Virus record (IMG/VR): IMGVR_UViG_2703718778_000002
Location: 1-6,661 of that record
Length of the DNA stretch: 6,661 bases
Source: a virus
Lineage: Duplodnaviria > Heunggongvirae > Uroviricota > Caudoviricetes
Direction: 5' to 3' (one strand)
In this document: one piece after another, positions 1-58 of the stretch
Numbering within the stretch: the first letter of the stretch is position 1
Layout of the letters: every line of letters begins with the position of its first letter
Made by a program: the position numbers and the translations under genes
The notes under the pieces: model-generated
The model's input: the letters and a program-made list of their open reading frames with translations, nothing else
Databases searched by the model: none
What the model was told of the DNA's origin: nothing

Positions 1-28
1 GTTCAGGCCCACCCCACCAGGAGGACCC

Positions 29-54
29 GCAAAAAAGGCGGCTGGTGCCGCCTT
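29..54 (-). terminator. Rho-independent terminator downstream of the protease-capsid gene
   Basis: Plus strand 31-52 reads AAAAAA-GGCGGC-TGGT-GCCGCC; on the minus strand this is a GC-rich 6-8 bp stem with a 4-nt loop followed by TTTTTT, lying just 3' of the stop codon at 59-61. Confidence 0.6.
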
Positions 55-58
55 GTTG

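Follow-up and report, generated by a model that had tools for sequence, protein, structure and literature searches.

Why should a viral DNA repeat one short sequence at the ends of two of its gene blocks? The window analysed here is a stretch of 6,661 nucleotides from a Caudoviricetes record of IMG/VR (IMGVR_UViG_2703718778_000002, positions 1 to 6,661). The sequence lies at 4-42 and again at 2541-2579, beside stem-loops that follow a capsid gene and an ssb gene. The original prediction described it as a paralogous, terminator-associated element closing both operons, which could mark module boundaries for recombination or carry a conserved protein-binding or RNA 3'-end motif. We conclude that the 39-bp flank is very probably the conserved core (cosQ heptamer plus the spacer of about 21 bp to cosN) of two lambda-type cos sites. 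These lie in direct orientation, bracket the capsid module of a phage satellite and may permit packaging by helper terminases of two lineages through non-redundant cosB classes.

The repeat was confirmed by direct comparison. Positions 4-42 and 2541-2579 are identical at 32 of 39 positions without gaps, and the best 39-mer match in the shuffled window (20 shuffles) was 24-26 of 39. When the pair is extended to 4-54 and 2541-2591 (51 nt, 76% identical, spacing 2537), no direct-repeat family in the window ranks higher. The similarity is much longer than the 39 bp originally given, and copy 1 is truncated by the window edge. Genes are found on the minus strand only (several small ORFs, a replication gene, a 109-aa ORF, SSB, a 75-aa ORF and a capsid fusion). 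On this strand both copies fold strongly into stem-loops with differing stems, as proposed. The hairpin of copy 1, GGCGGC-ACCA-GCCGCC (37-52), is followed by U6 (31-36) and has an energy of -15.1 kcal/mol (z = -3.75; 0 of 200 shuffles folded as well). That of copy 2, GCCGGA-GAAA-TCCGGC (2574-2589), is followed by U6 (2568-2573) and has -15.4 kcal/mol (z = -4.75). They lie 6 nt past the capsid stop codon (59-61) and 16 nt past the ssb stop codon (2606-2608), respectively. Both are GC-rich stem-loops with a subsequent U-run at the end of a gene block and thus have the features of rho-independent terminators. A consensus terminator scan of the window listed neither hairpin, and direct folding shows both; possibly the stems were lengthened into the T run by A-U pairing. 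Read along the coding strand, the stop codon comes first, then the hairpin, the U-run and the shared flank. The flank, which had been placed before the stem-loop, is therefore downstream of the hairpins in the direction of transcription.

Eight records of Stx and lambdoid phages contain window positions 1-35 with 100% identity. The match in VT1-Sakai and 1720a-02 lies between Rz and the small terminase gene, with a lambda-A-like large terminase next, which is the place of a lambdoid cos site. A phage cos between lysis genes and terS-terL was found in VT1-Sakai, 1720a-02, CP-1639, Stx2_112808, phi458 and ASU11. For alignment of the cos sites the real lambda genome ends were used (nick indicated by a caret):

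Lambda right end: ...TTTAC-GGGTCCT-TTCCGGTGATCCGACAGGTTACG^GGGCGGCGACCT
VT1-Sakai and satellite copy 1: TTTTGC-GGGTCCT-CCTGGTGGGGTGGGCCTGAACACG^GGGCGGGCGG...
Satellite copy 2: TTTTGT-AGGTACT-CCTGGTGGGGGTGGCCTGTCCACG^GGGCGGAGGGGC

Lambda 48473-48479, reportedly the cosQ coordinates (Wieczorek & Feiss 2001), read GGGTCCT and equal the cosQ of copy 1. The lambda-end alignment gave cosQ GGGTCCT, a spacer of 23-24 nt and then ACG^GGGCGG. The distance from cosQ to the predicted nick is 24 nt at copies 1 and 2, within 1 bp of lambda (about 23 bp). At copy 2 (cosII; copy 1 is cosI), AGGTACT at 2559-2565 is the cosQ allele. The cosN there reads ACG^GGGCGGAGGGGC^GC (2521-2537), with CG-flanked nick sites, the left half GGGCGG and a predicted 12-nt cohesive end at 2523-2534. 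CosQ is a highly conserved 7-bp site, and the left half GGGCGG of cosN is conserved while its right half varies in natural lambda-like phages (PMC4669245). The second copy as originally delimited consists of the cosII spacer, cosQ and part of the terminator. The features of the window are as follows.

1-21, minus strand: spacer between cosQ and cosN of cosI, CCTGGTGGGGTGGGCCTGAAC; 100% identical to VT1-Sakai and other Stx phages, Rz-terS intergenic region.
22-28, minus strand: cosQ of cosI, GGGTCCT, predicted packaging-termination signal; identical to lambda 48473-48479.
31-52, minus strand: predicted intrinsic terminator of the capsid operon, hairpin 37-52 and U-run 31-36; from fold energy.
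59-1948, minus strand: ClpP-like prohead protease / major capsid fusion, 629 aa; Pfam CLP_protease and Phage_capsid_4, PHROG head maturation protease / major head protein, RefSeq annotation of the E. coli 2012EL-2448 island.
1945-2172, minus strand: small ORF of 75 aa, phrog_4934, first gene after cosII; from ORF and PHROG.
2380-2522, minus strand: cosB of cosII, carrying GGCACCATCACCACCAC as R3-position motif (2476-2492; bp 43-59 counted from the predicted nick); from similarity to phage cos.
2523-2537, minus strand: cosN of cosII, ACG^GGGCGGAGGGGC; aligned with lambda ACG^GGGCGGCGACCT.
2538-2565, minus strand: spacer (2538-2558) and cosQ allele AGGTACT (2559-2565) of cosII; from lambda alignment and phage-like contigs.
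2568-2589, minus strand: predicted intrinsic terminator after ssb, hairpin 2574-2589 and U-run 2568-2573; from fold energy.
2606-3028, minus strand: SSB-family protein, 140 aa, final gene of the replication block before cosII; Pfam SSB, 3.7e-16.
3589-5337, minus strand: D5/primase-type replication gene; from window ORFs and domain searches.

Copy 2 is a complete cos (about 2380-2565). The window edge interrupts copy 1 at a distance of 3 bp from the predicted nick, and the window start is therefore no evidence for a physical DNA end. What copy 1 lacks here, cosN and cosB in about 200 bp, was seen in relatives only, at 7801-8045 of the E. coli 2012EL-2448 locus (our handle L003) and in 23 IMG/VR relatives. 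Besides window position 1, contigs begin or end inside cos at L083 11632-11676, L087 5627-5686, L088 9432-9675 and L092 1-108. Presence of the cosQ-cosN core in both satellite copies and in resident prophages likely disrupts short-read assembly at these sites. The cos identity would thus account for assemblies, the window included, that break inside cos.

Other identities of the repeat were considered and discarded. The ...CACCA within the repeat, and the use of tRNA genes as targets by P4-like integrases, brought a tRNA or att fragment into question; ARAGORN found none, and phage homology explains the sequence. An Rfam scan of the whole window (E <= 1) returned three weak matches, each scoring well under the gathering threshold and lying away from the repeats, and the repeat was no longer considered an RNA family. 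A further idea, that AGGTACT is a dead cosQ and leaves cosII with initiation only, was ruled out by the occurrence of this heptamer elsewhere. It is the sole cosQ in eight single-cos satellites, and a pattern scan of IMG/VR (AGGTACTCC-N14-24-ACGGGGCGG; 75 contigs examined, L169-L243) found it with terS and terL directly downstream in 44 phage-like contigs. The TerL proteins of these AGGTACT contigs are 59-81% identical to that of VT1-Sakai, save one distant 24% match. From these occurrences AGGTACT is a natural phage cosQ allele and not a product of decay, while natural cosQ variation is not apparent from the lambda literature (PMC4669245). CosI has GGGTCCT in 66 of 74 cases, and in all 24 from close relatives. 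The cosII sites of the E. coli group, the window included, carry AGGTACT in 17 of 30 and GGGTCCT in the other 13. Phages 1720a-02 and CP-1639, which have a cosB like that of cosII, carry GGGTCCT, not AGGTACT.

The protease-capsid fusion gene is bracketed by the two cos copies as direct repeats 2537 bp apart. For the surrounding element, the best complete-genome match was L003, where the window lies inside an island of about 10 kb at tRNA-Pro. The annotated genes are an integrase, an HTH regulator, an Icd-like protein, primase, SSB, the capsid fusion and a 93-aa end gene. No att repeat of at least 12 nt was found in L003 between the tRNA-Pro end and the far island end, for which reason the size of about 10 kb was taken from the annotation and from IMG/VR record lengths. 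Beyond the 93-aa gene, at the far island end (L003 7455-7520), five closely spaced GTCAC repeats were observed, which may be arm sites of an integrase or excisionase. Immediately 3' of the primase gene (3340-3585) lie direct and inverted GGTAGA/CTACC-type repeats (families D4, D5, I4, I12), a cluster that fits the iteron origin described for PICIs. With a size of about 10 kb, int, a regulator, primase plus iterons, a helper-type cos and neither lysis nor tail genes, the element has the features of Gram-negative PICIs (islands of about 10-15 kb), and by its sequence it is a phage-inducible island like EcCICFT073. A P4-like satellite was rejected; the L003 annotation contains no psu, delta or sid, and the cos is lambda-type, not P2-type.

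In EcCICFT073 the cosB of cos1 is of non-phage type and is read by an Rpp-TerS heterodimer (PMC6092414, PMC6739421, PMC9026076). With RppA as tblastn query, the island and window yielded nothing better than E = 3. No TerS homologue was found in the island by tblastn, and when the Rpp, TerS and head genes of CFT073 were searched against it in the same way, the 93-aa end gene was the only match. Helper-type phages encode their own protease-capsid fusion, which is 48-53% identical to that of the satellite (L108 15434-17605; phage-like loci) and in helper-like phages lies about 4.5 kb after the phage cos. The satellite protein, as judged by this similarity, is a diverged homologue of the helper head protein, comparable to Ccm of SaPIbov5; it might redirect head size.

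For several close relatives the whole satellite was observed inside a prophage terL (L101 1-12000; L108 11800-17700; also L091, L100 and L221). The order is phage cos, terS, the N-terminal 335 aa of terL, satellite, the C-terminal 373 aa of terL, portal and protease-capsid. Within the satellite it is int ... primase, ssb, cosII, capsid, cosI, orf93. The two terL pieces sum to 708 aa, as compared to 707 aa for intact TerL. This variant has an attachment site different from tRNA-Pro, and the packaging gene of the class-A helper would be disrupted until excision.

The terminators of relatives were counted by hairpin energy (dG <= -12 kcal/mol) instead of a T-run rule, because RNAfold stems absorb the T-run and a requirement of at least 4 T after the stem undercounts them. 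A GC-rich hairpin of this energy was present directly upstream of cosQ at 61 of 74 cosI and 46 of 51 cosII sites. The stems vary among satellites with pairing kept (GGCGGC/GCCGCC, GGGCGGC/GCCGCCC, GGGCGGCC/GGCTGCCC, GCCGGA/TCCGGC, CCGGGA/TCCCGG). What phages have at this position is a weak AT-rich palindrome, GATAAYNATTATC (dG -5 to -7 in reference phages; median -2.6 in 43 phage-like contigs). Satellite-phage homology ends a few bases upstream of cosQ, at window 34/35, and the U-run at 31-36 coincides in part with a T-rich stretch found ahead of cosQ in phages. The lack of GC hairpins in phages and the end of homology at 34/35 identify the hairpins as satellite additions, probably intrinsic terminators that stop transcription of the capsid operon and of the ssb/replication block just before a cos. 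The AT-rich palindrome itself is kept across phages (L001 3030-3050; L004, lambda 48450-48470; L170-L243), and we know of no function assigned to it. Two further, overlapping terminator-like hairpins (GGCGC-A7-GCGCC, and GCGCCCCCGATTGCTGTTACCGGAGGCGC then U4) lie at 2323-2376, between the cosB of cosII and the 75-aa ORF and hence upstream of the capsid operon. They could act as an attenuator or antitermination target; Rfam matches in this region (STnc130, ctRNA_p42d) were far below gathering score.

To compare the two copies with phages, cos sites were split at the nick and the cosQ-cosN and cosB halves were aligned separately. Unsplit, cosII (window 2405-2572) was 91% identical to the cos region of 1720a-02 and CP-1639, and the cosI of relatives was 88-90% identical over about 200 bp to the cos of VT1-Sakai and several Stx2 phages. 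The cosQ-cosN halves were 79-95% identical in all comparisons. The cosB halves separated into pairs: cosI and VT1-Sakai shared 84.6%, cosII and 1720a-02 82%, as against 61% for cosII and VT1-Sakai and about 60% for all cross pairs and for both phages mutually. Where lambda has R3 (bp ~43-62 counted from the nick), class A (VT1-Sakai/Stx2_112808 type) reads CGTCATCATCATCAT and class B (1720a-02/CP-1639 type) GGCACCATCACCACCAC. Phages of the VT1-Sakai and 1720a-02 types have TerL proteins that are 99% identical. Their TerS proteins, which belong to Pfam DUF1441, are 77% identical and differ in the first ~65 residues. The N-terminal residues of lambda-type TerS form the DNA-binding domain (PMC9026076).

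Among the scored phage-like contigs, the class of R3-position motif tracked the TerS N-terminus without exception. A (CAT)n motif was accompanied by the TerS wing APGSNxKxKLY (31 contigs), CAYCACCAC by the wing GG(H/N)ESNLKLY (4 contigs) and (CAG)n by an unrelated N-terminus (17 contigs); these contigs are mutually related, and the counts describe covariation, not independent events. The recognition helix of TerS is nearly identical in both classes (...HRQTVAAR...), the differences lying in wing and flanks. By this covariation the phage group would comprise at least three classes of packaging specificity. From the same pattern we infer that TerS of the two classes differs in specificity. By cosB similarity, each satellite cos copy matches a different helper-phage type.

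For conservation, 157 loci encoding relatives of the capsid fusion were fetched. Among close relatives (capsid identity at least 90%), cosII was located about 640 bp upstream of the capsid gene in 30 of 30, with cosN, R3-position motif and spacing intact, and cosI about 17 bp downstream of it in all 23 contigs that reach there. Further copies and conservation, which had been set beforehand as the test of the repeat, were thus found in helper phages and in every close relative examined. The direct orientation and the cos spacing of 2.54 kb are fixed across relatives. At 55-65% capsid identity, 50 loci were covered on both sides, and cosI was found in 47 and cosII in 23, about half of these more distant relatives having one cos. 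CosI, being near-universal, therefore looks ancestral and cosII a later, lineage-specific addition. Where both cos could be scored, the R3-position motifs of the two sites differed in 44 of 44 satellites. Below 55% capsid identity (Pasteurellaceae, Shewanella, Pseudomonas), cos was undetectable with these queries, which says little, because the helpers there differ. An extra cassette of about 0.8 kb lies between the capsid gene and cosI in five loci (L132, L135, L137-L139). The cos modules are also mosaic, a lambda-like cosN/cosB (GGGCGGCAGACG CGCGGGTTTTCGCTATTTATGA) occupying the cosI position at L120 9391-9460 and L122 8995-9064.

The proposed packaging route follows from the biology of lambda and EcCICFT073. 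After induction and replication of the satellite, helper TerS would place terminase on cosB and TerL would nick cosN. DNA would then be pumped from cosB towards the downstream genes, i.e. along the minus strand and in descending window coordinates, and cosQ plus cosN at a later cos would end packaging irrespective of the cosB class. The island would mimic the helper cos directly instead of using Rpp. CosI, with GGGTCCT and a (CAT)n-type cosB, would be tuned to terminases of the VT1-Sakai type, and cosII, with AGGTACT and a CACCATCACCAC-type cosB, to the second class, e.g. 1720a-02/CP-1639. A satellite with neither Rpp nor TerS of its own could in this way be packaged by two helper lineages. 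The location inside the terL of a class-A prophage in some relatives provides a physical association that was counted for the cos explanation. We regard dual helper specificity as the likeliest function of the two cos, and give about an even chance to the statement that the copies are non-redundant and tuned to two helper terminase classes.

A stricter form, held only tentatively, treats the copies as an orthogonal pair with a shared cosN read by TerL, a different cosB read by TerS and a different cosQ allele, so that each helper class would see one complete cos and both would package the full unit. More speculatively, the cosQ alleles would hide each site from the other's helper at termination, yielding the full 10-kb unit and not a 7.5-kb or 2.5-kb piece. 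If true, such a pair would reveal natural specificity classes of cosQ. Against dual specificity, GGGTCCT occurs at both sites in 13 of the 30 close relatives, and the cosQ difference is not fixed. The GGGTCCT of the class-B phages 1720a-02 and CP-1639, the nearly shared TerS recognition helix, the dispensable cos2 of EcCICFT073 and the single cos of about half of the more distant relatives speak against it as well.

The main rival, which we consider rather unlikely, assumes that only the ancestral cosI right after the capsid gene is used and that cosII is a passenger, brought in together with or beside the capsid module by recombination with a phage at cos, and has no role in packaging. The distribution in the 55-65% group (cosI 47 of 50, cosII in only about half) agrees with this, as does the arrangement of cosII followed by capsid, which mimics phage cos followed by head genes, helper-like phages having their 48-53% identical fusion ~4.5 kb past cos. 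In EcCICFT073, transfer depends on cos1 and increases when cos2 is deleted, and a second cos can therefore be dispensable or costly (PMC6092414). A passenger would not be expected to be retained with cosN, R3-position motif and spacing intact in 30 of 30 close relatives, with a cosB still 82% identical to that of a living phage lineage, nor to differ from cosI in cosB class in every case (44 of 44); and with AGGTACT as a natural phage allele, cosII is not a decayed copy.

Alternatively, and improbably, the second cos could serve interference or size control, either as a decoy titrating helper terminase from a multicopy replicon or as an extra cut that sets DNA length (7.5-kb versus 10-kb units, small heads). 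Interference with helper packaging is common among satellites (PMC6739421). Direct orientation together with the constant spacing of 2.54 kb would allow defined sub-genomic products, and the satellite encodes its own capsid homologue. No sequence feature requires such a role, however, and for a decoy neither a cosB class unlike that of cosI nor another cosQ allele would be needed. Termination in lambda-type packaging requires a head that is almost full, and a cos 2.5 kb after initiation should be skipped.

Finally, a terminator-associated paralogous element closing both operons, as an RNA 3'-end/processing motif or a recombination hotspot for modules, is barely conceivable: strong intrinsic terminators directly adjoin both copies, cos classes, cosQ alleles and the cos-adjacent cassette vary among relatives, and sequences common to satellite and prophage could support recombination, but the flank follows hairpin and U-run (3' side, coding strand) and is largely untranscribed, the same sequence occurs in phages that have the weak palindrome and no terminator, it is homologous to lambda cosQ/cosN, and no Rfam family matches it. 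The original prediction was right in that the repeat stands at the ends of two gene blocks, but the repeat is not defined by their terminators. Its protein-binding option was essentially correct, the flank being the cosQ-to-cosN part of the terminase recognition site, while the RNA 3'-end option is unlikely. As for a module boundary used in recombination, cosB classes and cosQ alleles are shuffled and some relatives contain the extra cassette, but the conserved function is very probably DNA packaging and exchange is a by-product at best.

That a satellite copies the packaging signal of its helper, and that such satellites can have two cos sites, is already known. New here is that the copies appear to match different helper-phage types, in another layout and with no Rpp. 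This offers a testable answer to a stated open question, namely the reason for which certain E. coli islands have retained a pair of cos sites. Two packaging classes of Stx phages are mimicked by the copies here, and these islands move virulence-linked DNA among EHEC-type strains. The results also point to natural classes of cosQ and of the TerS/cosB pair in lambda-like phages, which could be used to predict which prophage mobilises which island.

For comparison, EcCICFT073 has two cos sites with helper-like cosQ and cosN, and both are functional when cloned on plasmids (Fillol-Salom et al. 2018 ISME J, PMC6092414; 2019 Mol Cell, PMC6739421; Murialdo & Feiss 2022, PMC9026076). It resembles the present element in the 93-aa end gene (89% identical), the primase/ori layout and two cos copies near the capsid gene with cosQ/cosN that are all but identical to the helper's. 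Its hairpin GCCGGAGAAATCCGGC plus T-run, equal to window 2574-2589, abuts the cosQ of the cos that precedes rppA. It differs in layout, its cos being ~0.8 kb apart, inverted and flanking rppA, whereas here they are direct, 2.54 kb apart and flank the capsid operon. Its cosB is unlike that of any phage, whereas here cosB is phage-like (82-85%) and Rpp is absent. Moreover, the capsid protein here, a protease-capsid fusion, shows no relation to c1499 by BLAST, and cosII carries AGGTACT.

Lambda cos has the identical cosQ GGGTCCT and a nick spacing within 1 bp, and the TerS-site-like motif here at bp ~43-59 corresponds in position to R3 of lambda (50-65) and N15 (48-60). The phage classes here, like lambda and 21, share cosQ, cosN and TerL and differ in cosB and the TerS N-terminus (PMC4669245). 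Unlike lambda, the phages here have a TerS of Pfam DUF1441, and the R3-position motif is trinucleotide-repeat-like, (CAT)n, CAYCACCAC or (CAG)n. Upstream of cosQ the satellites have a GC terminator and not the AT-rich palindrome, and their cos is not followed by terS. SaPIbov5 and SaPIbov4 (two putative cos) likewise have a satellite copy of the helper cos and are packaged by helper terminase, and SaPIbov5 encodes a capsid-protein homologue (Ccm) (PMC5052747, PMC6092414). Their sequences and hosts are unrelated, and their helpers are HNH-dependent cos phages; two cos of different specificity, for which there is no evidence there, would set the present island apart.
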